Positions 1 through 41,820 of a stretch of DNA of 41,820 bases are shown here, piece by piece. The notes below the pieces were generated by a model that saw only the letters and a list, made by a program, of their open reading frames with translations, made no database searches and was not told the DNA's origin. Origin of the DNA: Reclinomonas americana ATCC 50394 (Eukaryota); assembly GCA_048213135.1 (NCBI GenBank), contig PS015120.1, forward strand, positions 116,743 through 158,562, given 5' to 3'. Both the position numbers and the translations under genes were made by a program. Each line of letters opens with the position of its first letter. The first letter of the stretch is position 1.

Positions 1-3000
1 TCCGACTGCTGCAGGCACGCATCTACGACGTCGCGGTGTCGCCGCTCAACCCACTCACCGGCAACAACACGATCACCATTCAGTGGCGCTGCAGTGACCC
101 GCAGACCACCTCCGTTTCACTGATGGTTCCGGCGTCACCATCGGTCCCCATTGCCTCGCCAGTCCCCGTGGCGTGCGGCATCTCCTCGCCAGCCCTGCAA
201 ACGCGCACGTGGACCGTCTCCAGCCTGGCCGCCGGCTCGTGGTCAGTGCGTATCACGGACCTGTCGCGCTCGTGGCTGTACGGCGACAGCAACACATTTA
301 CTGTGCCAGGTGATTTTCCTTTCCGTGCACGGTCTCAGCGATGTGTTCTCAACAATTCTCTCTGCAGCTGCACAAATCTCTTCCGTGATTGTTGCGCCCG
401 TCTCCACCTCGGTCATCTATGCTGGCGCTGGCAGCACGATTGCGTGGCGCTGCTCGTCACCGTCTGTTGCGTCTGCATGTATTGACATGGGTGCTGGCGC
501 CTGCTTTTCACCTCTAACTTCTTCGTGTCCATCTGGCAGACGACCTCGGTCACGCTGACTGTGGCCGACGGCATCACCATTCCATTCGGCTCGCCGTTGA
601 TGATTGGCACGGCGGCAGCCTCATGCGACTCAGTGCTCCTGCACGACAAGCTCAACGTGTACAACTGGACACCGGACACTAGCACACTCGGCGCCAACTT
701 TGTGGTCACGGTGGCCGCTGGAAGCGTCACCGCCTCATCTGGACATTTCACCGTCTACAAGCGCAGTATCACCGTGTCCACTGCCTCGTTGGTCGCCGTT
801 TACTTGGACTACCCGCTGCAAGTGACGTGGACGTGCCAATACGAGGGCACCACAGCGGTCGACATCCTCATCACGGATGCCGTATCCGGTTCCACGTTGG
901 CCACCGCCGTGTCCATGTATCCGACCACGTGCGCCGCGCTCAATCCCACGACGCAGACCTACACGTGGAGTAGCGCAAGCAGCGCGCTGCTCAGTGGCTC
1001 CGCAAATGTGATTCTGGTGGTGCGCGATTCGTCCGACGGAACCGTCGTTGGGTCGTCCACATCGCTGCCGGTGCGCAAGGCCATCTCCAATGTCACGGTG
1101 CCGGTGGCGTCGCCGCCGAGCATCGCGGTGATTGGTCGCAGTTACACCATCACCTGGCAGTGCGACAACAATCTCGGCGGTACCACACTGGCGACTCTGG
1201 AGGTCCTCCTTGTGCCGGCCACAGGCAGTGGCGGAACCGCGGTTCGCGTGGACTCGCTGCCTGGCGCCGTGTGCTCCGGCTTCCCGTCGTACCGATGGAC
1301 GGCCTCGGCAGCGTACACACTCGCCGCCACCTCCTACGTGTGGATGGTGCGAGATGCGGATCGACCACTTGCGGGCCGCGCTGTGTCGTCGCCATTTACG
1401 TTGACAACGGGCGTGACCGGCGTCATGGTGGCGCCGATTGCGCCTTCGGTGGCTTTGGTGGCCGCTGGAACGGCACGCCTGTCGTGGAATGTTGCGCGCC
1501 TTTTGGAGTGCTTTTTTTCTCTCGGCGTGTGTGTGTGTTCACTCACCCGTCGTCATCGCGCACTACAGTGTTTCGATCCGGCAGTGTCCACCGTGCGCGT
1601 GACTCTGCTGCGGCAAGCACAAGCGTCGCTCTTCCTCGGCCAGTTTCCGAGTACGTGCTTCTCATCGGGTGCCGCCAACACGGTGACAATCAGCCTGCCT
1701 GTTTCAGCTGCCTCGCCCAGCGCCACATTCACCGTGGCAGATTCGGTCGTGGCTTCCGTGTCGGCAACCTCCGGCTCCATGGTCATTTCCGGTACGTAGT
1801 GGCATCACGGTAACATGCAAAATGCGCGTTCACTTCTTGACTACTGGTGACACACACAGCTCCGAGCGTTGTTGTGGTCTCGGTTGCGCCAGCTGCAACT
1901 GTGTACGCCTGTTCGACTTGCACTGCCACGGTCACGTTCTCGTGCAACACCGGAGCTGGTGTGGAGCTGCTGCTGGATCGCGGCGGACTGTTTACGCTCA
2001 TTGGCCCACTCACATCGGCACTCTGCTTCGCGGCATCGTCGGACGGTCACGGGTACCTGCAGACGCTGACGTGGAGCGTGTCGACACCTCTAGTGGGCAC
2101 TGGCGTGTCGTTGTTGGTGCGCTCGCTGTCCGATGCCGCACTCACCGGCTCGTCGGCCACCTTCAACGTCGTCGCCGCTGGATTCTCGCTGTCCTCCATC
2201 CAACCGGTGTATGCCGGCTACTCGCTGGCACTGTCCTTTGTTTGCTCCAACTCCAACACCAAGACCATCCAGGCTCAGCTCGGTGGCGCCATCCTCACCA
2301 CCAGTTATCCGATCGTTGCCTCTGTGGCCAACACAGCCGTGTGGGGTCCCATTCCCGTGTCCATGACGGGCATGTCGGTGTCGCTGAGCCTGCAGGATAC
2401 TGCCGACTCTGCGGTCAGCACCGTTTTCCCGGGCATTGCCGTGCTGCCTACAGTCAGCAGCGTCACCACCAGCTCATCAGTGATTCAATACGGCTCGGTG
2501 CTGACCATCAACTGGGTGTGCGATGGAGCCAATAGCGCCGTCGGGCCGATCGAGGTGGTTGCCGTTACGCAAGTGACGCTTGCACCCACGGCCGTGTCGT
2601 CGACTCCTTCGGGGAGCACAGTGGCCAGCGGAGTGGCGTGCGCCGGCGCAGGTACTGCTTCGTGGACTGTGCCGAGCAATTTCCCGGTGGGTGCGGCAGT
2701 GATTATTGTCCGCGACGCCCGGAATGCCAGCGTTGCCGCACAGAGCAGTACTGTGTATGTGGTGGCCGGCTTGCTGTCCTTGGTGAACGTGGCGCCGATG
2801 CCGCTGTCACCAGGCAGCGTGGTGACGGTGTCGTTTGTTGTCGGAGACTCGGCGCTGACGACTGTGGTGGAGTTGTGGGTGTTGCCGAGTGCTGGTGTCA
2901 GCTTCATGGCGGCCAGTGTGGCGGCCACCGCAGGTGCAGCGCAGTGGACAGTGCCTCGTGCGTTTGCCGATCCTGCAGTGCAGTTCCAGGTGTGTGTTGA

Positions 3001-6000
3001 GAGAGAATGAGTGTGTATTGCCCGTGGTCAAGCTTGTTCACCGGTGGTGGTGCAGATTGTCGATCCCATGCGCACCTTCCTGGTCGACACCAGTGCGCCA
3101 TTCACCATTCCTGGTTGCGTGCCAGTCCAACTTGCTGTACTCCGTTCTCCCATATTCTGTGTTCCACTGACGCGTGCCTGCACCAGCCGTCTCGCTGTCG
3201 CTCCTGCCATTGAACCTGGCGGTGTCGGTGACCGGCGTTCCGATTACCATTCAAGCCACATGCAACTCGCCCACATCGGCGCCACTCACTGTCACAGCCA
3301 ATGGCGTGCCGCTGGGTACCATGACCGGCGTGTGCGCAGTCGGCGCCGCTGCCAGCACGCTCACGTGGACGCCGACAGCTCCCTCTGCCAACACCGTCAT
3401 TACGGTCACCGACGCCGTCGGTGTCACGTCCAGCAGTTCGCCGCTGGTGATTGTCGGTGAGTGCCTGTTGTTTTTCTCAGTGCCTCCTTCCTATTCTCTC
3501 CCGCCTGGCGATTCACACATGCGACACAGATCGCCTGTCTGTCGATGTCAACACTCCGTTCCCTCCGACGGTCGGCGGTCGTGCGTTCCCGTTTTACACG
3601 TACTCGGTGATGGTACAGTGCCGGCTGAGTGCCGCGCAGAATGCACGATTGGATTTGGTCGACGTTGGCACAGGAGTTGTGACCAGCACCATCTTTGCCA
3701 GCACTCGCGTACAATGCGGCTCGGCCACGGTGCCGGCGGGAACACTGCTGACGGTGCTGATGCCGAACGTGCCCTCGTCAACGTATCGACTGGAGCTCTC
3801 CGACGTTGCGCTGCCAAGTGTGCGCTACACGACGGCAAGCTTTACCGTCACTCGTTGCGTCGCCGCATTGGATGAGCGTCTTGCTGTTTACCGTCGTCGC
3901 CTCACACTTGTGGTGGTGTTTGTCTGTATACGCAGCCACACTCTTCATGCCAACGCCGTCTGTGCCGGCGGTGCTGCTTGCCGGCGTCCCGGTGAGCGTC
4001 TCATACGGCTGCCAACCGAACCCGCTCATCAGCTATGCCCGCATGACCTTGTTGGATGCGTCGACCCTGCGCACCGTGCAAGACTTTGGCCTGGTGACTC
4101 CGTTCACGTGCTCGAACTTGACGCCTCTTCCCACGTGGGTGTGGAGCATGCCAGCGCCATCGCCTCCCACAACCACCTATCTGCTACAACTGAGCGATGA
4201 CAATGTGCCGCAAGCGTTTGTGCGCACCACCGCGTTCACCTTTCAGAGTGCGTCGTCACTCTTAATTTTTCGTCGTCGCTCTTGATCTGCACGCTAAATT
4301 CTTGATCCAATCTCCTGCCGTAGCTCCATCGCTGGCCTTTGAGCCGCGTGCCATTGGCGCCGAAGTGTACCCACCAACAGTGTATGTCGGCCAGCCATAC
4401 TCTCTGCAGTGGATGTGCGACTATCCGGGTCTGGCGTCGCGTGCTGCCTCATTTGATGTGGTGCTGGAAGCTGTCGGTGTGGACAACTCGGCTGTGGCGA
4501 TTGCTTGTGAGTACGAAGAGACATCTTGCACATATTTATATCTCTCTTTCTGTTCCTCTGCCCTCATGCGCTTCACCGTAGCCTCGCTGGGAGCCACTTG
4601 CGATGGCAGCGCTGGGGCGCAAGCGACCATCACCTGGCGACCGACGGCGGTGACCAACACCACGCTGCGTTACCAGATGCGTGTCACGGACTCGGTGCGC
4701 GGTCTCACCAACGTCACCGACTCGTTCTACATTCAAGGTGATTAGTGATGGCGCACGTCGCCACTCACCGCCCATTTACTGACTTGCTCGCCGTCGCCGC
4801 CGCACAGAGTCGACCATTTCGTTGTTGCCTTTGTCGGCCGCGTCACGAATGCTCTTCTTCAACTACACCTCCACTATTCTTCAATTCACGTGCAACGATC
4901 CACAGACCACGGCTGTGGATGCGGTGGTGTACGAGGGAACCAGCGTGGTGGCTACGATTGCTCGCTCCCTCTCCGTGACCTGCTCACCAACCATGAGGCC
5001 GGTGTCGACACGCTGGACGCCTTCATCACGCAACGCTCGCGTCGCACAGCAAGCGTACCTGGTGGTCACAGATTCGAACCGACCAACGTACGTGGTGCCG
5101 GCGCAGTCGGAGACATTTCCGATCTTGTCGTCGCCACTGTCGGTGATTTCACCGCTGTCGGGCGCGTTGCTGGCGTCGCACGAGCCCGCCGTATTCAGCT
5201 GGCGCTGCTGGTCGACAGTGATCGAACGTGTGCATGTATACTTGCGGCGAGGCGTGGAGCGCTTTGCTGTGGCACTCGATGTGCCGGCGCGGTGTGGAGT
5301 TGACGACAGCGGCAACAATCTCGTGCGGTCAGTCGACGCGCATATTGCCACATCTTTGCATGCTCGTACTTGATGCACTAAAGTCGTATTGGTGGCGCAG
5401 GTGGACGTCGGTGGACGTGGATCGCGGTGCAAACAGCAACGACACCGACACCGTGTATTTGGAGTTGGTGGACGCGCGGACGAATTACACGACAGTCGGC
5501 GCCACGTACGGCTTGACGTACCGTCAAGTGTCGCTGGTGGATCTCGATCAACCCATGCCAGTGGTAACCGTCGCCGTGCAGCAGTCAGTGCAGTTCCGCT
5601 GCACTCGTGCAGCTATGAAGCGTGCGCATGTGCTGCTGCACCAAATCGACGGACCTGGCACGCAGCTCGCGTCGGCAGAGAGTCGAGTTCCCACCAGTTT
5701 CGTGGTGGATGTGTGCCTTCAGTTCTTTTTGAGGGGATGCTTATGCTCGCATACGCAGTCACGGCGGGCGGCTTGTCGACCGTGGCCTCGTCGAGTTTGA
5801 ATCAGCGTTTCTGGATCGTTGGCTACAATACGACGGCTGTGTGCGATTCGAATGCGCGAATCCACCTGACTGCAGGTCAGTTTCCGGTGTTTGTGTGCGT
5901 GTGTCCCTCCAGTACAGTTATGCCTGACTTGTGCCGTAGCCGATACTTCTGACCCGCTGACCAATGAGGTTTTCTGGCGTCTGGACCCTTCGTTCCAAAC

Positions 6001-8386: not shown

Positions 8387-8442
8387 AATGAAAATTTATG
8401 TTGTGCTTGTTGCGTTGGTGTCGACAGAGAGGAGACAAGCGA

Positions 8443-9746
8443 ATGACGACAGCGCACAGGTGAGGGTGCTCTCTTTACACGCGTTGCTGTGGACATGTCT
8501 ATCACTCACACTCGCGCACACATGATTGCAGACCGACATTCAACGCCGTTGCGTTGCCACACTTGCGCGCACTCTCTCCCTCTTCCTCACTCTCACACTG
8601 ACTCTGTGTGCATCTCCTTTCGTCACACACACAGGCCATGGGCGGCAATGAGCGTTGCGTCTCTCTCTCTCCCTTCATGTGTTCAATGTCAGAGTGGACT
8701 TTCTCTCTCCCTCTCTCACCGCTGACAATGATGGGGTGTGTCTTGCACAGAGGGCGGCTATCGCTGGCACGTTCCATCGCGAATGCTCTCGGCCAAGAAT
8801 GTCACCGGCTTCACCAAGATGAAGAAGCGGTGAGACAGTGAGAGAGACAGTGAGAGATGCTTGTGATTGACTGCAGCCTGCTGCTCACGCTCTCCACGCA
8901 CAGCCACTTCCCCACTGCGGCGGCCAGCAAGGACGACCTGAAGCAGTCGCTGCAGCAGCGCGAGCGCAAGCACTTTGAGGAGAAGCGCAAGAAGGAGCTG
9001 GGCGGTGCCATTGGTTAGTGTCTGCGCGTGCACACTGTGTGCACGTTGACTCTCACGAGTGCGTGCGTAAAGAGGACGAGCCTGCTGGTGGCGAAGACGA
9101 GGAGATGGAGGACGAGGAAGAGGGCGAGGAGAAGGCCGCGGCGCGCAAGCCGGCGTCGGGACCAGCACCGGGGCTGCCGACGGGCGTGGATGACGAGGAT
9201 CGCGACGAGGACATTGAGAGTGAGTCGGGCGACTCATCGTCGTCGTCGTCGGACGATGACGACGACGACGATGACGATGATGATGAGGAGCTGATGCGAC
9301 AACTCGAGGCCATTCGCAAGGAGAGAGCAGAGGAGGCGATGAAGAAGGCATGCTATGCTGCTGCTGCTGCTGCTGCTGCTTGTGTGTGTGTCGCCACTGG
9401 CCGTACTCCTTTCGCTGACCTGGTGTGCCCCAGGAACGAGAGGCGCAAGACAAGGCCAATCGCGAGCGAGAGGAAGCCGTGCTGCTCGGCAACCCGCTGC
9501 TGGCACACGCCGTCGACAAGTCGTACGCCATTAAGCGACGGTACGCGGAAATAAGCAAGGCCTTGACCCGTCGCCGAGATTGGCTTCATTGATTGTTGAT
9601 TTTGATTGATTGCAAACAGGTGGGACGACGACGTGCTGTTCAAGAACCAAACACGCGGCGAACCGGATCGCAAGCGCAAGCGTTTCATCAATGACACCAT
9701 CCGCTCCGACTTCCACCGCAAGTTCCTCGAGAAGTACATCAAGTGA
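8443..9746 (+). CDS. CWC15: Pre-mRNA splicing factor Cwc15/Cwf15
   Basis: Exons 8443-8459, 8532-8547, 8635-8653, 8751-8829, 8904-9013, 9073-9347, 9434-9540 and 9620-9746 give MTTAHRPTFNAAMGGNEQGG...TKMKKR...[14 protein letters not shown]...LLGNPLL...[13 protein letters not shown]...[21 protein letters not shown], which are the hallmark Cwc15 motifs. Confidence 0.96.
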
Positions 9747-9926: not shown

Positions 9927-12900
9927 ATGAGCACCGCCGGTGACTCATCGCCCTCGGAGGGCAGCACGGTGATGACGATGAGCCCGAGCTTCTCACTGCC
10001 GAGTCCACTTCCGGCGGCACCCGCTCGCAGCAACCTGCTTCGCGGCCCCACTGCCGCCGCCATTGCGTGTGGGACCGCACGGCGACGCGTCTCACTCGCC
10101 GTCCTCACCATGCCTCCCATGCACATGAGTGGCAGTCCGGGTACGGGTCATGGTGATGGTGGTGCCAGTGGTGGTCAACGCGAGCAGGTGCCACTGCAGC
10201 GGAGACCGTCCATGGTCGCCGCAGCGGCCATGATGAGTCAGCGCTCGATGCAGCCGCTGGACATGGACGATGTGCAGCAGGAGAGCGAGCGGGGTGAGTC
10301 TCCGGCGCGACCGGCGGTGGTCGCCGCCGCTGCTGCGCACAACAAGAAGCCGTCGCCAAAGAAGCCGTCGCCCAAGACGCCGAGACACGTCAAGACGGCG
10401 CAGACAGCGGCGACGGCGACGACGACGTCGACGACGTCCGCTACTGGCACGGGAAGGGCGAAGCACGCCAAGCCCAAGGCGTCGCCGCCAAAGTCGGCAG
10501 TGGCGACGGCGGCTGTCGATGCTGCCACTGCGACGACGCCCACAGCGGCTGCAGGAGGAGAGGATGGGTCGGCGGAGGATGGACAGGATGCACCGATGGC
10601 ACGCAAGGGCAGTGTCATTGTGACGCGTCGTTGGAGCTTTTTCCGAAAGCACAAGAAGCAGTCGGTTGCCCCGACGCCAACTGTAGTTGCGTGGGTGGAT
10701 TTGAGATGCTCTTCCTTTTTTTGTGGCTGTTTGGCTCATTCGCTTCTGTTTCGCAGGCCGTGCGAGTGTCTCCGTATTTGGAGCCACTGCAGCTGCCACC
10801 CGACTGGGCTGGCCTACTGGAGACGGTAAATATTGGCGACGAGCCGGAGCGCATTCCATGGCACACGGGCGTGGAAATGCTGCGGTCGGTGTGCAGCAAG
10901 CAGCTGAACGCCGTCACGGACAACGTCAACAAGATGGTGCAGACGCTCGACAGACGGCACGCCTCGCTCATGTCGGCGCTGTCGACTGTGTACGTCGACA
11001 TGAAGGACTCGCTGGAGATGGAGATGCAGCAGTTTGCGGAGAAGAACCAGGCGCTGAGCCAGTCGCTGCATGCCGTGGTGGAGAAGTCGAATCGCGACAT
11101 GAGCGACACGCTGGCGGAGATGTTTCGACGCACGTGGGACAAGCAGCACGAGGCCTTCTCCTCCAAGGTGGTCTTCTTGCGCGAAGAGTTCACCGAGGCG
11201 TTGAGGAGATGTCGTGTGGCGCACGAGGTGGAGCTGGAGAATCAGCGACGATCGCACGCGGAGAAGATGGAGACGGCGCAGAAGCAGACCGAGTTGCGCT
11301 TGCGACGCCTGCTGGAGGACCACTTGAAGGTGAAGCTGGCCGAGGCGGCCGCACGCGAGCAGGATGTGCGCGACGAGTTGTGGCGCCACAAGCTCGGTCG
11401 CGTCGACATCACCAGCAGCGATACGCAGACCGAGTCCGACATGGAGACGGAGCTGCGTTTGCTGCGCGAGCAAGCCGGCTACCAGGAGCGCATGCTGCGC
11501 GACAAGGAGGAGTTGTTGCACAAGTTTCGTGTCCCTCCCCAACAGTGATTTGTGTTTGATTCATGAACTCATCGTGCCTCTTTTGGCTGCAGTGCCAACA
11601 TTTTCCTGCGACACAAGTCGGACGAGCTGGCCAAGAGCGCCGAGGAGATGCAGCGATTAGAGCGCGAGGCCGGCAAGTTGAGGCTGGAGGTGATTGGCGC
11701 GCAGGATCAGATGCACCGAGAGCAGCGCTCGGCGGCAACCGCCAAGGAGCAATTCAATGCTGCCACCGCGCAGATGCAGTCCGAGTTGCGTGCCATCTCA
11801 AAGAGAACTTGAAGCGCTTCTCTCCTGTGTGGCTGACAGTCGCCAATACACAGAATGGAGCATTTGCGCGCCTCGTTGATGAGCGAACGCGATCGCTTCC
11901 GACAGACCAACTTGCAGTGGGAGTTCAAGGAGGCCACCCTGCTGCAAGAGATGGGCGAGATGGAGAATGAGATTCACCGACTGCGCGAAATGATCAAGGC
12001 GGCACGCATCTCGGCGCTGAACGACGAGGCCATTTTCGGCAAGGCGCTCCGTCACACAGTGGCGGTGGCGCACGTGGTTGGCAGTTTCGTGAACAACACA
12101 GAAAAAACTCAAGTCGTCTTGCTTTTTGTTGCACTCAACCCTCGATGATGCAGAAAACGAAACCACCGTGCACACGCCCCGAGCACCCGCGGCTCCCACA
12201 TCTTTCTTCTTCCCGACGGCTCTCGACTGCCCGCTGCCACCGTCGCCATCGAAGAGCTTTGGGCGATTTGCTCGCCGAGCACCACTGGCGAGCATGGCGG
12301 CGCCGAATGCCGTGCAGGAAAACTACTTTGTCGACACGAGCTTCGGCAGCGAGACGAGCCAGCGCTCTTCGAATCGCAGCTCGAACACGACGACGACGAC
12401 GGGTGTCAACTCGCCGGCGGCGACACACACATCGTCGGCCACCGCCCACGGCGGCAGTCGACTGGCGGCCGCAGCCGCAGCTTTTAATCAGGTGCCGTCC
12501 ATGACGGCGCCCGCGTCACCATGTGCCCCACCATCGGATTCGGATATGGACTCGGAGGGCGATGGTGGCTCGGCCAGCAGCGCCCCACCCAACATGCTCG
12601 AGGCCAGCGCCCCGAGCTCGGCAGCACCAACAACCACCATTACCACACCGTCACGCAAGGCACTGCCAGTGATTCCGCGCTTGATGGCACCATCTCGCGG
12701 CGGCACCACCACCTTTAGCGACAGCGCAACCGCATCGACCGCCTTCTCTGCTGCCGGCTCCACGCGACACACACTGGCGAATGCAATGGCCCAGCTGAGC
12801 GACATGTACAGGAGCGGCGACACGCTCGTGCATGTGCCGCTCTCTGCGCGCGCCAGCAGCAGCAGCACCAGCTCCACTGTGCCTCCACCGTCACGCTCCA

Positions 12901-13852: not shown

Positions 13853-14939
13853 ATGGAGGCCTTGAGAAGAGAGCTGCGTGCGTGGGAGGGCGAGTGGCTG
13901 CGCACGAAGCTCGATCAGAAACCACTGGAGGATGAGATCCATCAGGGACTGACGGTGTGTGACGTGTGGGCCCGCGCTCTCTCACATTCTCGCACACACT
14001 CTCTCACGCCACACACTCACGCGCGCGTGAGCAGGGTGTGTCGAGCAAGTTGGGCGAGCTGAATGCGCGAAACAGCGCGTGTACCTCACAGAGGAGAAGA
14101 GGACTGGAGAAGCGGTGCGCGCAATCAATCGGGATCTTCTCGCGCTCGCGCTCTCTCCAGAGCTGACCGCGTGTGTGTAGGATTGCCGAGTTGCGACGAT
14201 TGAAGGAGCTCATTGGGCATCGACTGGACGAGGGCGAGGAGGCCACACGTCGCGTGTCTGCGTTGGTGGAGAGCGTACGGGTTCGTCACACAGTCGTTGT
14301 TCTCTCGCTCTCCTCCTCTGATCATCGATCGAGTGCGTGCAGATCGCTCAGCTGACAGTCATGGAGAGCCCGCGATTGTCGGCAGTGGCCGCCGCCGCCG
14401 CCGCCGCCGATGGATCGTCGTCGGGGCAGGTGGAGCCTCCGTCGCCGACGCAGGCACTGTCGGTCGGCGGCGCCTCGTCGACTGCATCGCCGGGATCGCC
14501 CATGTCGCTGCCGGCGTCGCCACCTCTGCCTTCGCAGAGCAGTAATCGACTGGACGAGCTGCTGTCGGTGACGGTGCGGCTGGCCAGCACCGATCCGCTG
14601 GCTGAGACGCGACAACGCTTGCAAGGTGGTGGTGGTGGTCATGGTGAGCAGAGTCCGCGACTGGTGGCGGCCGACAATAGCGAAGCGGTGGAGGCCGAGG
14701 AGCGGCTTCGCCAGCGTCTGCAGCGATTGATGGCCGCCGAGGAGAAACTCTCGGCGCTCATGCTGCAGCCGTCGGCAAGCTCGCTGGTTCATGTTGCGTC
14801 TTGGATGAGAGCTGCGGATTGGTGTACAAGTCGTCTCACACATGTGCAGTCGGCTTCGCCCAAGCTGGCGGCGCTGTATGGAACGCAGCGCACAGTGTCG
14901 GCCGCCGAGATTTCCAAGCAATTGCGGAAACCCAATTGA
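13853..14939 (+). CDS. Hypothetical coiled-coil protein
   Basis: MEALRRELRAWEGEWL... continues in frame through GT-AG introns (donors GTGTGT, GTGCGC, and GTTCGT at 14281) into ORF 14337-14939. A possible further in-frame intron lies near 14787-14849. Confidence 0.6.
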
Positions 14940-15103
14940 AACGTGTGCAGAATTGTGTTGTATGAGGGTCAGAAGGTGTGCGCGGGACTTGGTGAACGAG
15001 GGTACAGCACTTTGCTGTCGAGCTGGAGGCGGGTGAGGCACAATTGAGACACGCGAGCTTTGTCCCGCGCGGCTCTTGGCCTTTTAATCATAATCTTTTC
15101 ACG

Positions 15104-19445: not shown

Positions 19446-19649
19446 TGCGGCAAATGATTGAAATCTGCTTTCGTTTCTCGCACGTCCCACCGACTACGTG
19501 ACGACGGTCGATGGTCACTGCATGCTACAGCCATCAATCCAGACGCCTGTTCCTCCTTTCCCCACCGACCACAGCAGAATTTCTGTCAAATTTTTTCACT
19601 TGGAAACGTCGCAAGTGGAGAGACGCACTCTGCCACTCGCTGTCCAATA

Positions 19650-19685
<36 letters not shown>

Positions 19686-19729
19686 CTGTGCTACAGTCGG
19701 CGTGTATGTAAGTGTGTGTCCGTGCTGGC

Positions 19730-24605: not shown

Positions 24606-24665
24606 GCGAGAAAAAGAAGAAAAAGGAAACAGCAACCAAATGGAAAGATTAAATTAGGATACTTG

Positions 24666-25964: not shown

Positions 25965-28238
25965 TTAGTCGACGTCTTCCATTGGAACAGCACACGGCTG
26001 CAGCAGGAAAACTTCGTAATCAGCCACGCGAAAGTCGTTAGCGCCAAAGAGAGCCTCCCGGCTCAGTGCGCCGCCGTCCGTCGCCTGAAATGGGTCGCCG
26101 CCTGCCCTTTGGCGCTGCGCATAGCAATTTTCACATAGATGAAACTGTTCTCCAAAGTAGGGGCCCCAGTTGGAAGCATGCCAAACTGGACCTTGATTGC
26201 ACTCAGGCCGCATCGTGAACTTCCGCAGGCCGCCGGACGGGGGGCAAGCGAAGAGAAAGCTGGTCGACGACGAATCTGTCTTCCAGCCACCGTGCGAAGC
26301 CCAAGGCACGGGCGTGAACGCGCCGGCAACATAGCCATAGCCGACGGTTGATTTCGCAACGACGAGTGTCGGCCTGCAAAACCACCGAACAGGTGAGAGC
26401 CCTGAGTACAAACAGCTGCATTTGAGAACATGTGCAGACCCTTTGTTATCACACAAGCGATGAAATGCTGCCGCTCCGAACCCATCGCGAGAGGCCTTGA
26501 ACAGCAAAGTCACCGAGGGCTGATGCCCGAGTGCCTGCCTCAACAACTGCAGCACTTCGACACCCAGTTCTCGAGTCAACAGAGTGGACGGGATACTGAT
26601 CTCCGCCAGTTCTCGCAGTCGGCGCTCCTGTTCTTCCCGCTCCCGTGCCTCTCGTTCCCGTTCCTCACGTTCCCTGGCCTCCGCGGCCAGTCGTTCAGCA
26701 GTCTCCCGCTCCTGCATGGCTCGTTCGCGTGCCTCCAGCGGTCCCAGTCGCGCGAGCAACTGCATCCAAGTAGAAGTGGGCCAACAGTGTCATGGTAGCG
26801 CCACAAACGTGAATGGACTCACGCACCGTGGCCACTTGCTGAGTGACTGTGAGCTCCAGAGTCGCCCGCGCTTCTCGCTCCATCGCCAGCTCACGTTCCA
26901 GCACAATCACTCGCTCCGTCAGCACAGCTCGGCACTCCAGCTCCTCAGCAAGAAGCTGCGACATAGAGCGAGTGTGCAGATGCAACTGCAGACGACGAGT
27001 GAGTTTGCGCAGACGTGGATCAGTGACAGCCATCCCATGCCGCGCGCAACATCGCGCAGCGGTCGCTCCACTCGCACGAGAGCGCATTCGCGTTCGTGCT
27101 CCACACAGTCGCCACGCGGTCCGCGCCACGTACACCCAATGTCACGTGCGCGACAGTGGCACGGCCGGAGAGCGCACTCCGACTCTGCGTGGCGACGATG
27201 AGGATCTCTCAAACAAAGTCGCTCCCTGCAAACACAACGCAACCCAGATGATGCAGCATTTGCGCCACGGAGCACTGCTCCTGGCACCCACGTGGACACG
27301 GTCGCACGCAGCCGCGCCGACTGTGCTCCACCAGCTCGCTCAGCACCACGTCCCGACCGCACCCGAGCGGGCACGGACGCGGGCATCCACTCCACGCATG
27401 CTCACCAGTCTCACGCAGCGACATTTGTCGCCAGCACTGCGTGCATGCGTGCATGCACTCCGACAGCGCATGCGTGCGATAGTACTCGCCCACCGACTGC
27501 ACGCCCAGTCAGCATAGTGGCAGAGGGCAACGAGAGAGAAGGAAGAGTCACCATTGGTCGTGCGCAGAGTGGACAAGTGACCTGTGCAAGAGTGAACGAG
27601 TGATGGAGTGCGTAGGTCGACAGACACACAGGCTCACGCACCCTCAAGTTCTCAAACAGCAAGCGCAATCGTCGCTGCACCTCGTGCGCCGTGGAGAGTG
27701 AGGTCGGTCCATCGCCACACAAATCGGAACCGGCTGCAGTCACGTGCGACCTGCATCCAACAAGAGAGAGAGAGAGAGAGTGTGTGTGTGTGTGTGCAAG
27801 AGAGAGAAGGAATGCCACTCACCGACACACATGATGCAACTCGCTGGAACACAACACCATATCCCAATCGCACAGATCCTGCACAGCCGCACGACACACA
27901 CACACATGAGCACTCAGCTCCGTCCTCCTGCAGCCTCCCTCGAGTCGCACCTGACACACTGGACACACATACTCCTCCGCCAACACACGCGACTCCTCCG
28001 CCACATTCTCCCGCCACAACCGCGCCGCCTGTGGCACTCCTCCTCCAGCACCAGCAGCAGCCTCTCGCCGCACCTCACTCACCACGCGAAACACAAATCG
28101 CTCCTCTTCTACGTCCTCCTCCTCGCCACCACGCACAACAAGCACCTCGTCGACAATGATCACTGACTCATCGGCGACAGGCGGAGGGTCGGCCATGGCA
28201 ACAACAGCAGAGGAGGAACCCTCTGCGAAGCCCATCAT
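25965..28238 (-). CDS. Degenerate RING + TRAF-type zinc fingers + coiled coil + TLDc domain protein
   Basis: EEYVCPVCQDLC..C..HHVC; repeated C-x2/3-C...EH...C fingers; C.ARDIGCTWRG...EHERECA; an E/R coiled coil; and TLDc motifs LLFKASRDGF..FHRLCDNKGPTL..GAFT..W..SFLF..GPYFG..DYEVF. Confidence 0.85.
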
Positions 28239-30126: not shown

Positions 30127-33100
30127 TTAGTCAGTACACGACTGATACAGCAGCGTCTTCCAGCCCTGAATGGCGCGCTCCAGTGGACTCTGTGTTGAAT
30201 CATGATGAGCGGTGGCGTGCAATGCGCCCATGCTTCAAGGGGAAAAAACGCAACATCTGTCGGCGATACAATGTCGGAGAGACCCATCCGATTCACGAGT
30301 TCTGTCACCAACAGTGAGCGACGTACCGCAGTTCAGCACAAATCACTCCCGTCTACGTACCTCGTTGGTTGCGCAAACGGCGTGCTTCGGCCCTCCTTTC
30401 GTCCTCTGTCATGTACTGATCCAGCGCCACCTCTAGCTCATCATCAACACCCACACCACCTGTGCACACACACAATGTGTCATCAACGAGCGAGCAACAG
30501 GGCGTCTAACCACGCTCTCCAATCGCACCTTCTTGCATCTGTGGGTCTTGCACGTGCCGCGAAGCGGCTAGCAACTCCGCCGCAGCCGCGTACCACGTGT
30601 GCACCTGCGAGGGAGTGCGGTCTGCGCTTCCTTGTGGTGAGAAACAAGCCCTTCCAAGCCATTCAATCAGCGACGCATTCGGCGTACCCTCTGCTGCGCT
30701 GCATCGGTCAAACAGAGCCACCATCCTCCCAAACAGCGCATGCATGGAGGTGGAGACGGATGGTGGATCGGGGCGCCGATTTCGCGTCAGCACCGGCGTG
30801 CGGGCGGTCTCATTCACAACCACCATCAGTGAGCGACGTGCTACACGAAGGATTGGGTGGAGAGCAGTAAGTGGACAGCAACAAGAAATAAATTCAAAGA
30901 CTCGTGACGAGCTTACCTCGTTCCAGTGACCAGTGCCACCGACTGCTGACTCCAACCTCCGACGCCATCATTCTCCAGTACAGAAGCGGTGATGATCCGA
31001 GCGCCACGCAAGCCAAGGTCACCTCGGCTGCTTGTGGCCACAGCGACGGTTGCATCGGCACCACGTCCAACATCTCGTTCAGCAGCCTTTAGACAGCATC
31101 ATCAGCACGCAACACACCCACAAACGACACACAGACGCCGGCACGACTCAACTTCCACTTGGTACTCGCGTCGGCAGCAGCGCCGCAAAACGCCGACGCA
31201 AACAGATGAACGCGCGAAAACACGTCCAGCTTCTCAAAGTGGCCCCTGCGGCGGAGTCAGGCCGTGTTAGTCGACGATGCGTGAAACAAGGATGCGGAGC
31301 ACGAGTGGCGCAACTGGAAGAGTGCGCCTCGCAGCTCGCGCAGTGCGCCGAATTCACATTCACCAGCCATGACTGCACAGCACCCGGCAGCAAAGGCGTG
31401 CTCCGATCCCGACGCATCGTCTGTGCGCGCGCATCGATTTTAGCGGGCAGACGCGTGAAACATGCTGCAGACGACACAGCAAGCGCAACCTCCTTCCTGA
31501 TGCGTGATAAATGTCGGCTTGAGTCGGGCCACCACCGAACTGACACGGTAAAAGTGGTGATTGGTCGCCGTGCTCGCCTCCAGCTCTGTGCACATGCGCA
31601 CCGTCAGCACTCCCACACACAAAACACACAAAGTGGAATTCACACGCATCGCACCTCGCACAGACTGCGGCTGCTGCACAGTGTCAAAAGCCAGCAGCGC
31701 TTGCACAGCTGCGTTGCCAATGTCGTCGCGCACGGCAGCAGCCACCGATGCGTCGAGTGGCGCCACACGACTGCCACCAATGCTCTGCGAGAGTGCGACA
31801 TTGAGCTGACGGCCAGTGAGCATGGCCACCAGCTTCTCCAAGGCCGCCACATCGGCTTCGCGAACAGCCTCGTTTGTGCTGCGTGACGGCAGGTCAGTTG
31901 TCCGCACCCACACTGCCGGGCATTGGAAAGAAACATGAAGACACGCAACTCGGCCGTAAACGGAAGCACCAGCAGGGAGGGCACGTGGTGTCGAATGACA
32001 TCGGGTGACAGCACCGAGAGGATGCTCGGCAGTGCCTCGAGCAAGCGCACACGTGCCACACTCGGCAGCTGCTCAAACACCATGGCCTGCAGCACCTCAA
32101 ACGTGCAGGCGTCGGTCTCACGGGCCCGCAACTCTGCACAGGCGATACCCACACACGCGGCAAGTGCCACACTCGCCAGCGCATCCTCGTGACCGGCGAC
32201 TGCGCGTCGCGACAGTAGGGGAGCCATGATGCCGGGAACTGTGATTCCACTCAGCGCAAACGGCATCTCTCGAGGCAGGAGCGAGACCACGCTGACAGCG
32301 GCGGCGACCGCAGCTGTCATCAAGTGAATGTCGCCGTAAGTCAATCAAGTGCAAGAATACAGATGCGCACACTGGATGAAAGAATCAGCTTACCTCGGCA
32401 TGCACTCTCCTCGGCGGCACCGATGGGTTGCAAAATCAGTGGCAACAAGTGCTGCGCCAGGCACGCTTCGGGGAAGTCCTGTGCACAAATTGAACAGCGT
32501 GAGTGGATGGAGGAGAACGTTCCATGAGAGACGTGCGCGCGACGCAACGTGTAGCACAATCTTGGTGGGAGACGAATTGGAGCCGCCGGCGCGATTGGCT
32601 GTTGCTGTTCGCAGGCGATCGGAAGCGACCAGCAGTGCGAGCAGCGTGGCCGCAACGCCGGCACTCCGCGGATCCTGCTGAATGGCGCGACCGACGCAGG
32701 CGACTGCTCTCTCCAGCAACTGCAGGTAGCAATTTGTGAGAGCAGGGCAGCAGGGCCACATCATGAAAAGTGCAGCCGCACCGTGCCAAACTGCCGGTTC
32801 TGCCACAGTGTGGCCTCGCTGCGCGCCACTGACGGTGGTGGAGGCGTCACATGATCCAAGTGGAACTCGGGTGACAACAGCTCGCCATCGCACACAGTGA
32901 GGCATCTGCAACGACGGCGGTGGGTGACTTGGAGATAAGATGGTCAGATCAACATGGGTGACGCACGCCAGCAGAGAGCCCAGTCGAATCTTGGCAAGTG
33001 GAGTGGTTGAGGCCAGGTGCATCACATGGTCGACAAACTGAGCCGCTGTCGGCACACCCTCCAGCAGGATGCTACAGCAAAGGAAGCAATCAATTGCAGC

Positions 33101-36100
33101 TGCCAACAAATCGATGCACCACACAACCACCTACCGATCACGCAAGCCAACGCGCAAGACCAACGCCGATCCGACTAGCGCAGCCTGCAGTACCGGCGAC
33201 GTATCCACGGTCCATCCGTCACGCGTGCACACCAGCCACAGCCTGAAACATCATTGTGAGACGTGACTGCGGACAAGGCAAATGAGTGTCTCACTCCATA
33301 CGAAACAGCTTGGCCAATGGTCCAGTCTGCTTCACGGCCGAAGCCGCCTTGCTGTGCATATTGTACAGCACAAGGGCGGTGGATAGCAGCACTGCGGCCG
33401 CGGCATCGATCATCTGCGCCGACATGGGCGGCCCATTCACTGCACATATCAAAAAAGAGTCAGCACGAAGAAGACTCAGCCAGCTGGGCAGGAGGTGCAC
33501 GCACGTGACTCAGAAACCGATACCGCCGCCTGCGTCAGCACTTTCAGAAGAGCTTCCTGCTTGGCTGCTGGCTGCGCCAAGCTGGCAAATGCAGTGCCCA
33601 GGTGTGCTCCGAGTGGCGCGAGTGAGGAGGCCAGGTGGTCGCGAGCTTGCAGAGCTGTACCCAACACACACGAGGACGTGAGGCGGGCAAGGGTCGTTAC
33701 ACCGCAAAGGTGTGCATCGCACCTGAACCGCGCAGCTGGCTGGCGTGCCTCTGCAGCCTCTCGAAAATGTCTGTCGCCAGCGCAGCACGCGCTCGCTGGT
33801 CGCCGAGTTGAGCACCAAAGTTGGCTGACGGAGCACACACGTGTGAATTGAGTTCATCGCCGTGTGTCGCACTCGCAAGCAGGCACACAAACCGCTGCGG
33901 CCGCTGGCCACGGCATGCGCAATCAGACCGAGTCCGAGACCCGCTCCAAACGCTTGCTCCATGCGACTCTCCAACACGTGCACGATGTCTTCCACCTGCC
34001 ACCACCACTGTCAGCACCGACCGCTGCGAATAACTGCGAGGACTGCAATACCTCACGCGCATCGCCCGTATCAGCCGATAAAGCCAGCGCCAAGCACAGT
34101 GAGTGCACCGATGCTTCGCCGGTCACCTGCGGCGCCAGCGCCATGAGCGATCGTCGCACCGAGCGCAAGTCAACGCCGCTCATGGCCGGCACAGCCAGGA
34201 ACAAGCTGCCGACTGCCAGCAGTCCATTCGAAGCATTCATCTCCCCACTTGCGTGCACGTCCACTCCAATGCGATGCACCGCCGCTGCCGCATCAATCCA
34301 CGCTGCCGACTCACCCAGTCCGCCGTCGCGCATGTGCACGCGCACTCGCAGGCGACAGTACTGCGCGGCCATGGTTACGATGCAACAACAATGAAAGAGA
34401 TCGAAAGAGCGTCTTAACGTACCTCACGAACAAAGGTAGTCCACGCCGGAGCGGCGTACAGCTGGAGCGTCCAGTCGGAAAGCGCCACCGATGCCACAGC
34501 GACGTCGGCCAGCAGAGTCGCGAACAAGTGGTCCAGGCTGCTTGTGTTCCACTGCCACAGACTGAGCTCTGCATTACCATTGCACCAGAACCCACAACAA
34601 AAAACACACATACCGTGATCGAGGCCGCATTCGCCTCGGCCATGTTTGCGCGAAACTCGGCGGCGTACGCAAAGAGTACCGCAAGTCCACCGCTGGATGC
34701 ACCACCACTTTGCGGCTGCATGTACACGTCCACAGCATCCTCTGCCGCCGACAGTGCGCGCACCACCGCGTCCAGCGGCTGCTGACCTTTGCTGCTCTCG
34801 ACACCTTTTCGCCGGCCTCCACGCGACGCCTGCGCACCGCCGCTGCGCAACGTGCCGTGATCCTTGGATTGCCACATGTCGGCGAGCTCCTGCGACAAAA
34901 ACTCTGCAAGCAGACGCTGCGTCTGCTCAAAACACGACATGCTGCCGTCGCCAGCATCCATGCGCTCCGACTGCATGACAACCATACGTCACAACACGCC
35001 ACGTGAATGATGGCAGAATACCAACAACAGCACTTGCACACACCTCGAAATCAAAAATCGGCTTCAGCTGTTCGGTACACAAGGCCGCATACGCCACTTG
35101 ATTGCGTCGCTTCTCCTCGAAAATGTCCACTGTGCATCACCAGTGAGCAACAACCATCCGGCCCTCAAAAGCACTCCTCCTCCCTCAACGCAACAGGCTT
35201 CCTGTGCCTGCTTTTCAGCATCCTCAGCATTGGTAGCAGCACTACCACTGCCACTGCCACCGCCGCGCGGTGCAGATGCTGTCGGCGGCGCTGCGTCTGG
35301 GTCGACAGCCGGTGGCTCATCGTCAAGGCGCATGGTGGCCCGTTGGCGCGCAATCAGGCGATCCACACCAAAGGCCAGAAGGGTGCTGTAGGCCGTCTGC
35401 CGCACTCTGCATACGCACTCCTGGTAAGTACAGAAAATGGCACGCAATATGTGCACCTCACTCGTGCGCACGCAACACGGGTGACGGGTCGCCGGCGATT
35501 TGCCATGCAGAGTCGATCGCCTCGAAAATGTGTGACACGGGTTCCTCCTCGTCCTCGTCACCATCGCCTCCTCTCTTCGCCCCCTCCTCTTGCTCCTCGT
35601 CATCCTCGTCGCCATCATCACCGTCACCCGGGTGCTTCAGTGGCTTGTTCCGTCCAGGACCCATATCGTCATCATCGCCATCATCGTCGTCGTCAGCGCC
35701 CTCAGTCAACAGTGCCAGTGCCAACACTGCGCATGTCGCCTGCGCCACTGGCGAGCTGAATGTGCACACTCTGAAGCGTGTGGCGGAGTGAGCAGCGAGA
35801 ACCCAAAAAGAGAATGCGATGTGCGCAACTCCAGCACAGGCCCTCGCATGGCGGCCCACGCCGAGGCATAATCGAGCACGCCCACCTCGAGGAACGCGCG
35901 GAAGCAGTTGAGTGCCGCACGCAAAATGCGCTCACTAGATTGCAGTGACGACTCGGCGCCATCCCACACCGCTCCTGTGCGACGGTGAGATGCAACAGGT
36001 GAGTCGCGGTCGCCGTCCACAGAGTTACACACCACGCTCCGCAATGCTGTCGGCTTCGTCCGTCACTGCCGCGCAGGCCCAGGAAACAACACGCGACAGC

Positions 36101-38632: not shown

Positions 38633-38685
38633 CGAAGGACGCTGAAAGAAGAAATGTGCAACAACAGGACTTCTTTCATTCAATG

Positions 38686-39713
38686 TCAACTTGAGAGTGT
38701 GCCTGGTGGGAAGCAGCTCACTCCATGCTCGAGACACTTGAAATGCAGAGTGAGCGACGCACTGCGCCGATCCTCGTCCTCTTCTTCGATGGTGATCTGG
38801 CGCAGGGGGGGAGAGCATTGAGCATGAGAAGACAAATGTTCCTTATTTGCTTGTTGTATCGCACCTGTCCGTGCACGTCCTTGCTGATGCCAGTCTCCAG
38901 CCCCTGCACTGTGAGCACTGTGCGACTCCAGTGTCTTAGCGACGCCGCCAGCAGCTTCGCCTCCGCGTCGTCCTCATCCGCGTGAGCGCGAACGATCAGA
39001 CGAGCACCGTGCTGCATGAGCTCCAAAATGTGAGCCGCAAGCACTCCCACCGCACCGCACCGTCTCCTCCTCCGCGCTCTCACCTCCTCTGCAAACACGC
39101 GCAGGTAGTGCACCACCTGCAGCGCCTCTGTCGCTCCCCAAAACAGCGCCAGCGTATTCAAACAGTCGACAATGAGCAGCTGCGGAGTGACACCGGCCAC
39201 AGGCGACACCATCAGCTCGACCAGTCCACGCGCACCGCCTCCTCCCCCCTCCGCGAGCGGGAAGTGTGTCACAGGAGGAGGCGCCGCCACAGCCTCCCCG
39301 ACCTCCACAGTCAGCGGCGACTTGAGTGCCAGCGTGCCTCCACTTGCACCAGTCTCCTCCAGCACATCGACAAAGGCGAGTGGAGCAGCAGTGCCGGCGC
39401 CCAAGCGCAGTCCGCCACCAATCTTGCGCGCAACTGTGCTCTGGTGCAGCCACGTGTGCTCTGTGGAGAGAATGCGGCAAGGCACTGCGTTGGCGGTCGC
39501 GCAACGAAGGAACTCGGCCGTGCAGAAGGAACCGTCGGCGGCCACGCTGTCAAGAATGCTCTGAGAGAGTGTCAGGAGTGACTCAAGGAGAGAGAGAGAG
39601 AGAGAGATAGAGAGGAGCGCAACAGTGAGGCCAGCACCCGGCACGACTCTTCTCTCTAGTAGCTCCTCCCAGCGACACGCGCGGTCGCCGTACTCGCACC
39701 ACCCGCGCTGCAT
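38686..39713 (-). CDS. ELP6: Elongator complex subunit 6
   Basis: ILDSVAADGSF, VARKIG, LLIVDCLNTL, TVLTVQGLETGISKDVHGQ|ITI...LHFKCLEHGVSCFPPG; three introns. Confidence 0.88.
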
Positions 39714-39916: not shown

Positions 39917-40793
39917 ATGTCACTGCTGGAGTCGGCGCTGTCCACTCTGGGCATTGTGCTCTCACTGTGTGTGTTCCTGGCACCACTGCGGACACTAAGA
40001 ACGCGATGGCACGAGGGCACAACTGACAGAGAACCGATTCTGGTGTTGCTGGCTTCGTCGCTCATGTGCTGGCTGTGGTGGACGTATGGGTCTGTCTCTC
40101 TGTCTGTCTGTTAATGTCTCTCACACAGTGTCTCACTGCTTGTGGCTGAGCAGCGTTCTCATTCCAAACTGGAGCATTGTCACTGTCAACTTTTGTGGAA
40201 TGGTGCTCGGTGTCGCCTACTTGTACATGTATCACCAAGGGAGCGAGCGAAAGGTCACCACCACTCACTCTCCTTTGTTTGCATAGTCAGTCACTCGTTT
40301 GCTCAGATAGTCGCTCACTGCTGCAGGACTCGACTTTGGTTTCCATTGCCGGCACCCTGCTCATCTATGTGCTCGTGCTCGGCTACTTGACACTGGCCAA
40401 CCCGATGCACACGGTCACGCACTTGGGATTCATCTGTGCGGCCTCCTCTGTGGCCATGAATGCCTCGCCACTGGCCAAACTCGTTTCGTCGTGGTGCTGT
40501 TGTCTCTCATCGTACTTCATGCTGCTCATTTGGGGGCGCGGCAGTCACACGTGGTGCGCACCAAGAACGCCGACTCGATATCGTCGGCACTGGCCGTGGC
40601 CAGTCTCGCCAACGCCATTGCGTGGACGTTCTACGGGTACGTGATTGAGGACGCGTTCGTGGTGGTGCCGAACGGGATCTCGCTGTGCTTGGCCGCCATT
40701 CAGGTGGCTCTCGTGTGCCGCTACTCGTGGATTGGCGGTCGATGGGGCGCCAAAGCGCTCCACTCCTCCACCTCTAATGTGCTCTTCTTTTGA
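39917..40793 (+). CDS. SWEET (MtN3/saliva) sugar transporter
   Basis: VFLAPLRT...CWLWWTYG|V...IVTVNFCG...MNASPLAKL|SHVVRTKNADSI...AWTFYG..DAFVVVPNGI..IQVAL show two MtN3 repeats; three introns. Confidence 0.93.
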
Positions 40794-40857
40794 CGTAGAC
40801 ATCATCATCATGTTACACACAATTCATAAACACAATAACAGGCAACAAAAACCACCA

Positions 40858-41820
40858 TTACTTGCGCAGCGCCGAGGCCGGCACGAACGGATTCCCGGGT
40901 CGAACGGATCCACCGTCTCCCGGCCCCGTTGGTCGTGTCGACGATACTCCTGTTGACGGCAACCGCTTCGGCGGCTTGCTGTAATCGTCGTCGTCGTCGT
41001 CGTCGTCATCCTCATCATCATCACCACCGTCCTCGTCCTCGTCCTCGTCACTACCTCCCAGACGTCGCTGCTGCAGCCGCTTCTTTTTCTCGTCAGAGTC
41101 CGTCTTGCGCCGTTTCAACAGCGGCGGGTTTTCGGGACTCTCCAGCTTCTCCAGCACTTTCTCTGTGTGTAACGCAGTGAGCAACAGCGGGAGATCTGTT
41201 TGTCGTATCGTGTGCGACGACACACCAAGCTCCTCCGAGTCTGGCGAGTCAAAATCGGCGAAAAAGTCGGGCGAGCGTGTGCGCTTCCCCGTCTGCGCCG
41301 GTGTGATGAGACTCGACGAGGACGCTGTCGACGAGTTCATCGAGTACACGGTCACATCGGCACCGGGCGAGCCTCTGCTGCCCCTGCAAGGTGGTGACAA
41401 GAGGCAACTGTCAGCTGTGGAGGAATCGGCTTCACGAACAAAAAACACACACGCAACATGGCACCGGGCGAGCCTCTGCCGCCTCTGCAAACGTAGCGGC
41501 AAGAGACAGTTGTGAGCTGCGGAGGAAGGCATCGACTTCACAAACAAAAAAAAACACGCAACATGGCAGGTGGTGACCCATTCGGATGCGCTGCTTTTCT
41601 GACCAGCTCGGCAAGGGAGAGTGGCTCGGGGGCCTTCAGACGGGCCTCCTCCTCCAGCTCCCGAATCTGCTCCTCGTCCGTGATGGCGTCTTCGGGCGTC
41701 GGTGCAGGGAACTTTTTGGGATCGGCCTCGTGCATCTTTCGTCGAAAGTAGTTCACGAAGGGGATACACTCGCGGAGACGACCAATACCTGCACGTGCCA
41801 TCAGCCAGTGAGTTCGCTGT
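40858..41820 (-). CDS. Unknown protein, 3' part (5'-truncated by window), with acidic tract and basic NLS-like motif
   Basis: …IGRLRECIPFVNYFRRKMHEADP…SPPA|IGGRGSPGA|MGSRGSPGAD…PLLKRRK…poly-D/E…; introns 41485-41562 and 41384-41457; stop at 40858. Confidence 0.65.
   Translation of the reverse strand, partial: TANSLADGTCRYWSSPRVYPLRELLSTKDARGRSQKVPCTDARRRHHGRGADSGAGGGGPSEGPRATLPCRAGQKSSASEWVTTCHVACFFLFVKSMPSSAAHNCLLPLRLQRRQRLARCHVACVFFVREADSSTADSCLLSPPCRGSRGSPGADVTVYSMNSSTASSSSLITPAQTGKRTRSPDFFADFDSPDSEELGVSSHTIRQTDLPLLLTALHTEKVLEKLESPENPPLLKRRKTDSDEKKKRLQQRRLGGSDEDEDEDGGDDDEDDDDDDDDDYSKPPKRLPSTGVSSTRPTGPGDGGSVRPGNPFVPASALRK

Follow-up and report, generated by a model that had tools for sequence, protein, structure and literature searches.

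The 41,820-nt stretch of Reclinomonas americana ATCC 50394 considered here (contig PS015120.1, positions 116,743 to 158,562 of the forward strand; hereafter the window, in whose own numbering all positions are given) is intron-dense eukaryotic DNA, with a GC content of about 55-64% throughout except in an AT-richer stretch at 14-20 kb. Genes that can be named are those for a Kre9/KNH-like surface protein, Cwc15, MECR, a DCN1-like protein, a TRAF-type zinc-finger protein, a TLDc-like protein, ELP6, a SWEET protein (+ strand) and a HEAT-like protein. The subject of this report is the 5' splice sites (donors) of the introns in these and neighbouring genes. Beside a main class, aG|GUGcGU, a second major donor class, N|GUUGCG(U/C)g, is very probably real, judging by the sequence signals described below. 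In this class the conserved G that ordinarily stands at intron position +5 is found at +6.

Introns were delimited with a dynamic-programming parser limited to introns of at most 130 nt. A donor-agnostic version was given no more than GT..AG, coding potential and 3' signals; a self-trained two-class version used the donor classes that emerged from it. Together with hand models and profile-scored junctions this gives a working set of 105 introns, comprising 28 that start GTTGCG, 58 with G at +5 (the ordinary or +5G class), 8 others of the form GTY..G with G at +6, and 11 others. The GTTGCG set consists of the 27 introns listed in a preliminary description of this DNA, all 27 of which do read GTTGCG at the position and on the strand given there, plus one further donor at 14793 (+). 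The GTTGCG introns, and other introns of the shifted register, are as follows, each with the basis on which it was placed.

466..539 (+), GTTGCG intron of 74 nt, repeat-rich surface protein gene; both parses, repeat spacing
1491..1568 (+), GTTGCG intron of 78 nt, surface protein gene; both parses, repeat motif
3114..3186 (+), GTTGCG intron of 73 nt, surface protein gene; both parses, no other in-frame GT within +/-18 nt
3854..3935 (+), GTTGCG intron of 82 nt, surface protein gene; both parses, no other in-frame GT within +/-18 nt
8548..8634 (+), GTTGCG intron of 87 nt, Cwc15, following a 16-nt exon; best by profile
8654..8750 (+), GTTGCG intron of 97 nt, Cwc15, following a 19-nt exon; best by profile
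10686..10756 (+), GTTGCG intron of 71 nt, coiled-coil protein gene; two-class parse only
11785..11853 (+), GTTGCG intron of 69 nt, coiled-coil protein gene; both parses
14793..14849 (+), GTTGCG intron of 57 nt, the added member; two-class parse
23280..23363 (+), GTTGCG(A) intron of 84 nt, DCN1-like gene, first intron; two-class parse with a low-scoring model, frame by eye
24436..24513 (+), GTTGCG intron of 78 nt, DCN1-like gene, splitting a Trp codon (DDA-W-PTLYDEF); frame by eye, weak alignment
41476..41562 (-), GTTGCG intron of 87 nt, tandem duplicate of the 41457 unit; both parses
41378..41457 (-), GTTGCG intron of 80 nt, following an 18-nt exon, duplicate of the 41562 unit; both parses
39561..39623 (-), GTTGCG intron of 63 nt, first intron of ELP6; hand model, no other in-frame GT within +/-18 nt
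35756..35829 (-), GTTGCG intron of 74 nt, large HEAT-like gene; both parses
35407..35476 (-), GTTGCG intron of 70 nt, large HEAT-like gene; two-class parse
35130..35194 (-), GTTGCG intron of 65 nt, large HEAT-like gene; both parses
32479..32548 (-), GTTGCG intron of 70 nt, large HEAT-like gene; 12-exon open frame
31879..31949 (-), GTTGCG intron of 71 nt, large HEAT-like gene; 12-exon frame and parse
31421..31489 (-), GTTGCG intron of 69 nt, large HEAT-like gene; 12-exon frame and parse
31246..31314 (-), GTTGCG intron of 69 nt, large HEAT-like gene; 12-exon frame and parse
30190..30254 (-), GTTGCG intron of 65 nt, large HEAT-like gene; 12-exon frame and parse
27185..27243 (-), GTTGCG intron of 59 nt, TRAF-type zinc-finger gene; hand model, finger spacing
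26986..27050 (-), GTTGCG intron of 65 nt, TRAF-type zinc-finger gene; hand model, no other in-frame GT within +/-18 nt
25250..25316 (-), GTTGCG intron of 67 nt, membrane protein gene; both parses
24980..25037 (-), GTTGCG intron of 58 nt, membrane protein gene; both parses
21928..22259 (-), GTTGCG intron of 332 nt, the first of MECR, another GTTGCG standing 6 nt upstream at 22265; tied best by profile
20022..21073 (-), GTTGCG intron of 1052 nt, MECR, containing a 5S rRNA gene; best by profile
40483..40544 (+), GTTTCGT intron of 62 nt, SWEET, shifted register; best by profile
31087..31152 (-), GTTGAGT intron of 66 nt, shifted register; 12-exon frame and parse
25529..25592 (-), GTTCAGT intron of 64 nt, shifted register; both parses
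11524..11592 (+), GTTTCGT intron of 69 nt, shifted register; two-class parse
5697..5758 (+), GTTTCGT intron of 62 nt, for which GTCGAGT at 5682 is an in-frame alternative donor of the same intron; parse

The hexamer GTTGCG occurs 61 times on the two strands, compared with 43.3 +/- 6.4 in 100 dinucleotide shuffles, of which none (0/100) reaches 61; the ordinary hexamer GTGCGT shows no excess (49 observed, 49.5 expected). Within gene regions 52 copies are sense and 10 antisense, and 28 of the 52 sense copies are modelled donors. A branch plus YAG signal lies 50-100 nt downstream of 25/52 sense GTTGCG copies, as against 466/2779 of all sense GT sites. In the donor-agnostic parse GTTGCG is the commonest donor, opening 16 of 95 introns as compared with 53 of 2872 sense GT sites (1.85%), so that a check of its frequency at donors against background, raised in the preliminary description, comes out at a nine-fold enrichment. 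An unsupervised two-component donor mixture seeded from this parse converged in one round on aG|GTGcGT with weight 0.67 and N|GTTGCGTg with weight 0.33. The 27 sites listed earlier are recovered in part by the donor-agnostic parse (16/27) and more fully by the two-class parse (21/27). The six missed by the two-class parse (21073, 22259, 24436, 27050, 27243 and 39623), all of which keep the reading frame when checked by hand, were missed because their introns exceed the 130-nt limit (21073, 22259) or because they neighbour such introns.

That no real class exists, and that the motif reflects GT/GC-rich composition, wrong gene models, an introner family, a minor spliceosome of divergent type or Ts inserted through assembly error, is very improbable. 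It draws some support from the 24/52 sense copies that lie outside modelled donors and from the duplicated pair at 41562 and 41457. Composition is opposed by the enrichment at donors chosen by the parse and by the failure of any shuffle to match the observed count; T-adding assembly errors are opposed by exons of 1130 and 1888 nt that remain in frame, for which reason the indel error must be low. Wrong gene models are countered by frames and profiles that fit exactly.

Frame continuity by itself is insufficient to fix exact junctions, because a 3-nt donor shift (GTT|GCG) keeps the frame. Junctions were scored with profiles built from homologues, every nearby in-frame GT/GC..AG alternative being scored as well, with the following results in bits.

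MECR 21073: claimed junction 482.2, others 476.3 and 472.1; 3 alternatives scored
MECR 22259: claimed junction 482.2, tied best; the tandem copy at 22265, 6 nt upstream, 476.5; 10 alternatives scored
Cwc15 8548: claimed junction 213.4, next best 207.7; 6 alternatives scored
Cwc15 8654: claimed junction 213.4, next best 207.4; 4 alternatives scored
SWEET 40483 (GTTTCGT): claimed junction 196.0, next best 183.8; 6 alternatives scored

Several junctions had initially been taken as pinned by conserved protein motifs. For MECR, Cwc15 and SWEET this is upheld by the profile scores, and for DCN1 it holds in part. The exon upstream of 24436 aligns end to end with residues 162-182 of DCN1-like protein 3 (4gba_A), although weakly (E = 0.43); a homologue search with a 45-residue DCN1 exon and a PDB search with the last exon gave no match. 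The DCN1 junction is thus half pinned, since only its upstream exon is aligned and the downstream exon is without a match. The third SWEET exon gave no match in PDB. Elsewhere repeated protein structure constrains the junctions: removal of the intron at 466 restores the C-x4-TT spacing of intron-free Ig-like repeat copies, that at 1491 restores the W-x-C motif of the Ig-like repeats, and that at 27243 yields, by eye, H-x4-C, the spacing of three upstream intron-free zinc-finger copies. For 13/28 GTTGCG introns there is no alternative GT at a multiple of three within +/-18 nt. In the gene at 32800-30100 (-), a hand model with 11 introns of 59-80 nt removed leaves one open frame of 12 exons; five of these 11 introns start GTTGCG and one starts GTTGAG. 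For the GTTGCG junctions of the large HEAT-like gene frame continuity is the sole basis.

Three arrangements of GTTGCG donors stand out locally. In the first MECR intron two GTTGCG donors of the same phase lie head to tail at 22254-22265 (-), offset by 6 nt; of the two, the downstream one has a small advantage in profile score (482.2 vs 476.5), and switching between them would add or drop two residues. In Cwc15 (8435-8750, +) the conserved N-terminus is divided over tiny exons, one of 16 nt and one of 19 nt, and a GTTGCG donor follows each of them. At 41378-41562 (-) there is a tandem duplication of an 18-nt exon together with its GTTGCG intron, the two units aligning from end to end, the final exon bases ahead of the donor included. 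Being a tandem duplicate, 41562 and 41457 count as one event.

By their sequence signals, GTTGCG introns are U2-type GT-AG spliceosomal introns. All 28 begin with GT and end with AG, 27/28 have C at acceptor position -3, and 25/28 carry a branch motif CT[ACG]A[CT] in the last 50 nt, in the forms CTGAC, CTCAC and CTCAT. The motif lies at a median of 22 nt from the 3' end (19 nt in the +5G class), and median intron length is 71 nt (69 nt in ordinary introns). Branch sites and CAG acceptors of the shifted class are therefore ordinary, as the earlier account of normal U2-type 3' ends had it. U12-type introns carry a 5' motif RTATCCTT and a branch site TCCTTRAC. The GTTGCG introns resemble them in being a separate class whose 5' motif is rigid and intronic and which lacks any consensus at the exon end, but both U12 motifs are missing and the branch site is CUNAC as in the main class. 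A U12-like system is excluded because the branch sites of GTTGCG introns are ordinary, and with it the divergent minor spliceosome as a source of the class. An introner family is not indicated either, because the interiors are unrelated between copies: 9-mers in the interior are common to just 11/325 pairs of GTTGCG introns, as compared with 13/1596 pairs of the ordinary class, and the one clear pair is the local tandem duplicate. The readings as an introner family, as a minor-spliceosome class, as an artefact of composition and as faulty assembly were all rejected.

The two donor classes differ on both sides of the junction. Exon-end G (-1) is present at 4/28 GTTGCG donors and at 43/58 ordinary donors (Fisher p = 1.5e-7), and AG| ends the exon at 1/28 and 16/58, respectively (p = 0.0087). 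GC immediately precedes the anchor G, the conserved intronic G of either class, in 28/36 shifted and 15/58 ordinary donors. The shifted donors (28 GTTGCG plus 8) have no G at +5, their G-U pair being displaced as in the definition of human bulged or shifted donors, and a pyrimidine follows the anchor G in 34/36 of them, in agreement with the proposed move of G-Y from +5/+6 to +6/+7. The preliminary description had further equated each such donor with an ordinary donor carrying one extra pyrimidine. This stands as far as the block is displaced by one base, and fails in that the exon-end G is lost and the second class is far more stereotyped. Because of the loss of exon-end G and the GC bias, the second class is better regarded as a rigid heptamer than as the ordinary repertoire moved by one.

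The shifted register accounts for 36/105 working introns (34%, or about 27-34% depending on the inclusion of members other than GTTGCG), close to the "about a third" first estimated. Seven additional shifted donors had been proposed alongside GTTGCG. Those at 11524, 25592 and 31152 are in the parse and that at 40483 is favoured by the SWEET profile, while 12084 and 13738 are without support; GTCGAGT at 5682 is indistinguishable from the in-frame GTTTCGT at 5697, 15 nt downstream. Among the 11 donors outside both classes is that of a SWEET intron at 40254-40326 (+), GTCACC, with no G at +5 or +6, and it has the best profile score of 3 alternatives (196.0 vs 193.5). In the DCN1-like gene, at 23524-23590 (+), the frame is kept only if the intron is of GC-AG type (GAG|GCTCGT...) or is a GT intron of very small size; GTTTTT, the donor that suggests itself there, is out of phase.

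In human introns, shifted and +2/+3-bulged U1 registers have been proven in cells, the +2/+3 bulge applying to 68 (curated: 54) of 201,541 donors and all non-canonical registers together to about 2%, according to excerpts of PMC4856993. The window donors are like these in having U after GU, a G-U pair at +6/+7 and not +5/+6, and cleavage before GU. They are unlike them in making up about 27-34% of window introns and in their block, GCGY and not AAGU, with which a standard U1 barely pairs. Excerpts of PMC11732430 describe two major 5' splice-site classes in animals and plants, AG//GUNNN and NN//GURAG. The window likewise has two separable classes in which exon-end AG or G is anti-correlated with a strong intron-side motif; it departs from NN//GURAG in that its intron-side class, GUUGCGY, is displaced by one base, and its main class combines exon G with an intron consensus.

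Donor consensus and U1 are also known to change together. From excerpts of 10.1101/2022.06.08.495308, Entamoeba has donors GUUUGUU with a co-evolved U1 strand AACAAAC, and Mastigamoeba balamuthi has donors GUGCGC with U1 strand ACGUAC. The main class of the window, GUGCGU, resembles the donors of Mastigamoeba, Mamiellales and Thecamonas, all with C at +4 and atypical in a lineage-specific way. In the same excerpts the Entamoeba and Mastigamoeba lineages have a single donor consensus in the normal register, whereas the window has two classes, and the available text contains no mention of bulged or shifted registers or of GUUG/GTTG. A full-text search for a major GUUGCG donor class gave no splicing paper among the motif matches listed, most subscription journals being outside the search. 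GUGCGY donors in the normal register are thus already known, and for a major displaced GUUGCG class no description was found.

Pairing of the donors (positions -3 to +9) with U1 5' strands was modelled as duplexes, giving the following mean energies.

U1 strand ACUUAC (standard): GTTGCG class -1.0 kcal/mol, +5G class -6.1
U1 strand ACGUAC (Mastigamoeba balamuthi): GTTGCG class -5.3 kcal/mol, +5G class -7.7
U1 strand ACGCAC (hypothetical): GTTGCG class -7.3 kcal/mol, +5G class -8.7
U1 strand ACGCAAC, with an added A (hypothetical): GTTGCG class -11.0 kcal/mol, +5G class -7.1

With the standard strand G+1 falls on C8 and the anchor G on C4 in 1/28 GTTGCG donors, as compared with 40/58 ordinary donors, and no register is stable for the GTTGCG class. 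Since the standard U1 5' end hardly pairs with GUUGCG, a mammal-like bulged register on a normal U1 is unlikely to be the whole story. Such weak pairing would also be expected if recognition took place mainly without U1 pairing, GUUGCGY being an extreme intron-side class of the NN//GURAG kind (U6- and LUC7-dependent), read by U6 and Prp8 or by lineage-changed U1C or LUC7-type proteins. The anti-correlation of exon-end G with the intron-side consensus fits this explanation as well, and is the same split as that of the two major animal and plant classes (excerpts of PMC11732430, PMC9803359 and PMC11842720). It is nevertheless distinctly unlikely, as regards both the mode of recognition and these candidate readers: in the normal register GUUGCG would be unpaired with the ACA of U6 too (assessed by hand with a standard U6 box), and a displacement by one base is still needed.

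Displaced-register recognition with a single altered U1 is the favoured reading, tentatively and with a probability of roughly 40-50%. The 5' splice site would first be recognised through base pairing with the UGCGY block, one nucleotide out of the usual register, with U+3 opposite U1 A7, normally the place of U+2, and the anchor G paired with U1 C4. G+1 would pair with C9, or with C8 and a bulged U, or stay unpaired. The cleavage site would be set later, by GU itself, on takeover by U6 and Prp8, and U6 would therefore have to accept one extra nucleotide between GU and the ACA pairing. The lineage's U1 is predicted to have G at position 5 of the recognition strand (ACGUAC or ACGCAC, not ACUUAC), because the C preceding the anchor G is near-invariant and the main consensus is GUGCGU. 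With the ACGUAC strand the anchor G is on C4 and U+3 opposite A7 in 28/28 GTTGCG donors, G+1 being on C9 in 11, on C8 in 5 and unpaired in 12.

Several points weigh against a single altered U1 or temper the results on which it builds. Thecamonas and Mamiellales prefer C at +4 yet retain a standard U1 (excerpts of 10.1101/2022.06.08.495308), so a changed U1 is not necessary for GUGCGY donors. The exon side favours neither a bulged nor a shifted variant, with T 11, A 7, C 6 and G 4 at -1 and C at -3 in 13/28. Both the register and the change predicted for U1 are inferred, and the duplex energies come from a model that ignores pseudouridines and U1C or LUC7-type proteins. The coding and intron models of the donor-agnostic parse were trained on an earlier parse that had used donor patterns, including those first proposed for this DNA; the training of the composition models left out the first 8 intron bases. 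Profile margins of about 6 bits, equivalent to about one indel, are supportive and not absolute, and some models in the 105-intron working set, near gene borders, are weak.

The strand with an added A pairs with 28/28 GTTGCG donors from G+1 to +8, and its mean energy lies above that of any single-U1 model in strength. Two U1 species may accordingly be imagined, one a paralogue with an extra recognition nucleotide (the complement of GUUGCGU), forming an unbroken helix without bulge or shift at the U1 step. The donor classes are sharply bimodal and not graded, the second is near-invariant over seven bases, and U1 recognition strands are known to vary in some protists (excerpts of 10.1101/2022.06.08.495308), all of which would suit such a pair. 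It is unlikely all the same. U6 would still need to tolerate the extra nucleotide, GTTTCGT, GTTCAGT and GTTGAGT fit the added-A strand poorly (mean -4.2 kcal/mol), and no organism with two functional U1 classes for two donor classes was found in the cited splicing literature. A dual-register code for intron starts across the whole genome, with about a third of introns read one base off from the others, through either a second U1 with an extra nucleotide in its recognition strand or a single altered U1 (with U6) natively compatible with two registers, is unlikely.

Displaced U1 registers are otherwise a rare human minority (about 0.03% for the +2/+3 bulge), mostly oddities or disease alleles. 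A free-living eukaryote in which one rigid displaced motif opens between a quarter and a third of the introns would be a natural test system, opening questions of how a cleavage site is fixed independently of U1, how much slack U6 and Prp8 tolerate from GU to the ACAGA pairing, and how snRNAs and splice signals co-evolve. If a dual-register code were true, the spliceosome would not hold the distance from cleavage site to snRNA-paired anchor fixed, and a second distance could become established in evolution and be stably inherited as a standard of its own. In a genome with so many displaced donors, about one intron in three would be modelled wrongly by gene finders whose training was on +5G donors.

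The nearest named relatives of the MECR protein (jakobid, dictyostelid and oomycetes) are 61-64% identical and the best match 68%; for the exon at 21076-21351 (-) the top database relatives are 65-68% identical. With MECR relatives only 61-68% identical, the lineage is poorly sampled. No protein identical to the window MECR was found in the protein collection searched, in which the organism seems to be without representation, and mis-modelled introns may partly explain the missing protein. An Rfam search of the window detected no snRNA genes, its sole match being a complete 5S rRNA gene at 20092-20211 (-; 103 bits), in the same orientation as the MECR intron 20022-21073 that hosts it and ending about 70 nt upstream of the 3' splice site. 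The same intron holds tandem repeats of about 105 nt in two arrays (20436-20632 and 20640-20827), which on the gene strand lie 5' of the 5S gene.

Searched singly against Pfam, exons of the large genes give weak hints only (RRP12-like HEAT, E = 0.008; TLDc, 5.5e-4), and the ELP6 exon 3' of the first intron matches Pfam ELP6 at 9.8e-14. The predicted surface protein at 3-6357 (+) is very large, with at least 13 copies of a [WFY]-x-C repeat of about 100 residues, a weak match to Kre9/KNH Ig-like domains (E = 2.8e-4), a single transmembrane helix and a long tail of low complexity; introns fall at several of its repeat borders. The AT-richer stretch at 14000-20000 has a GC content of 38-48% and contains four runs of N, at 15600-15993, 16407-16625, 17619-18360 and 18609-18999, between which sits an open reading frame at 16630-17258 (+).

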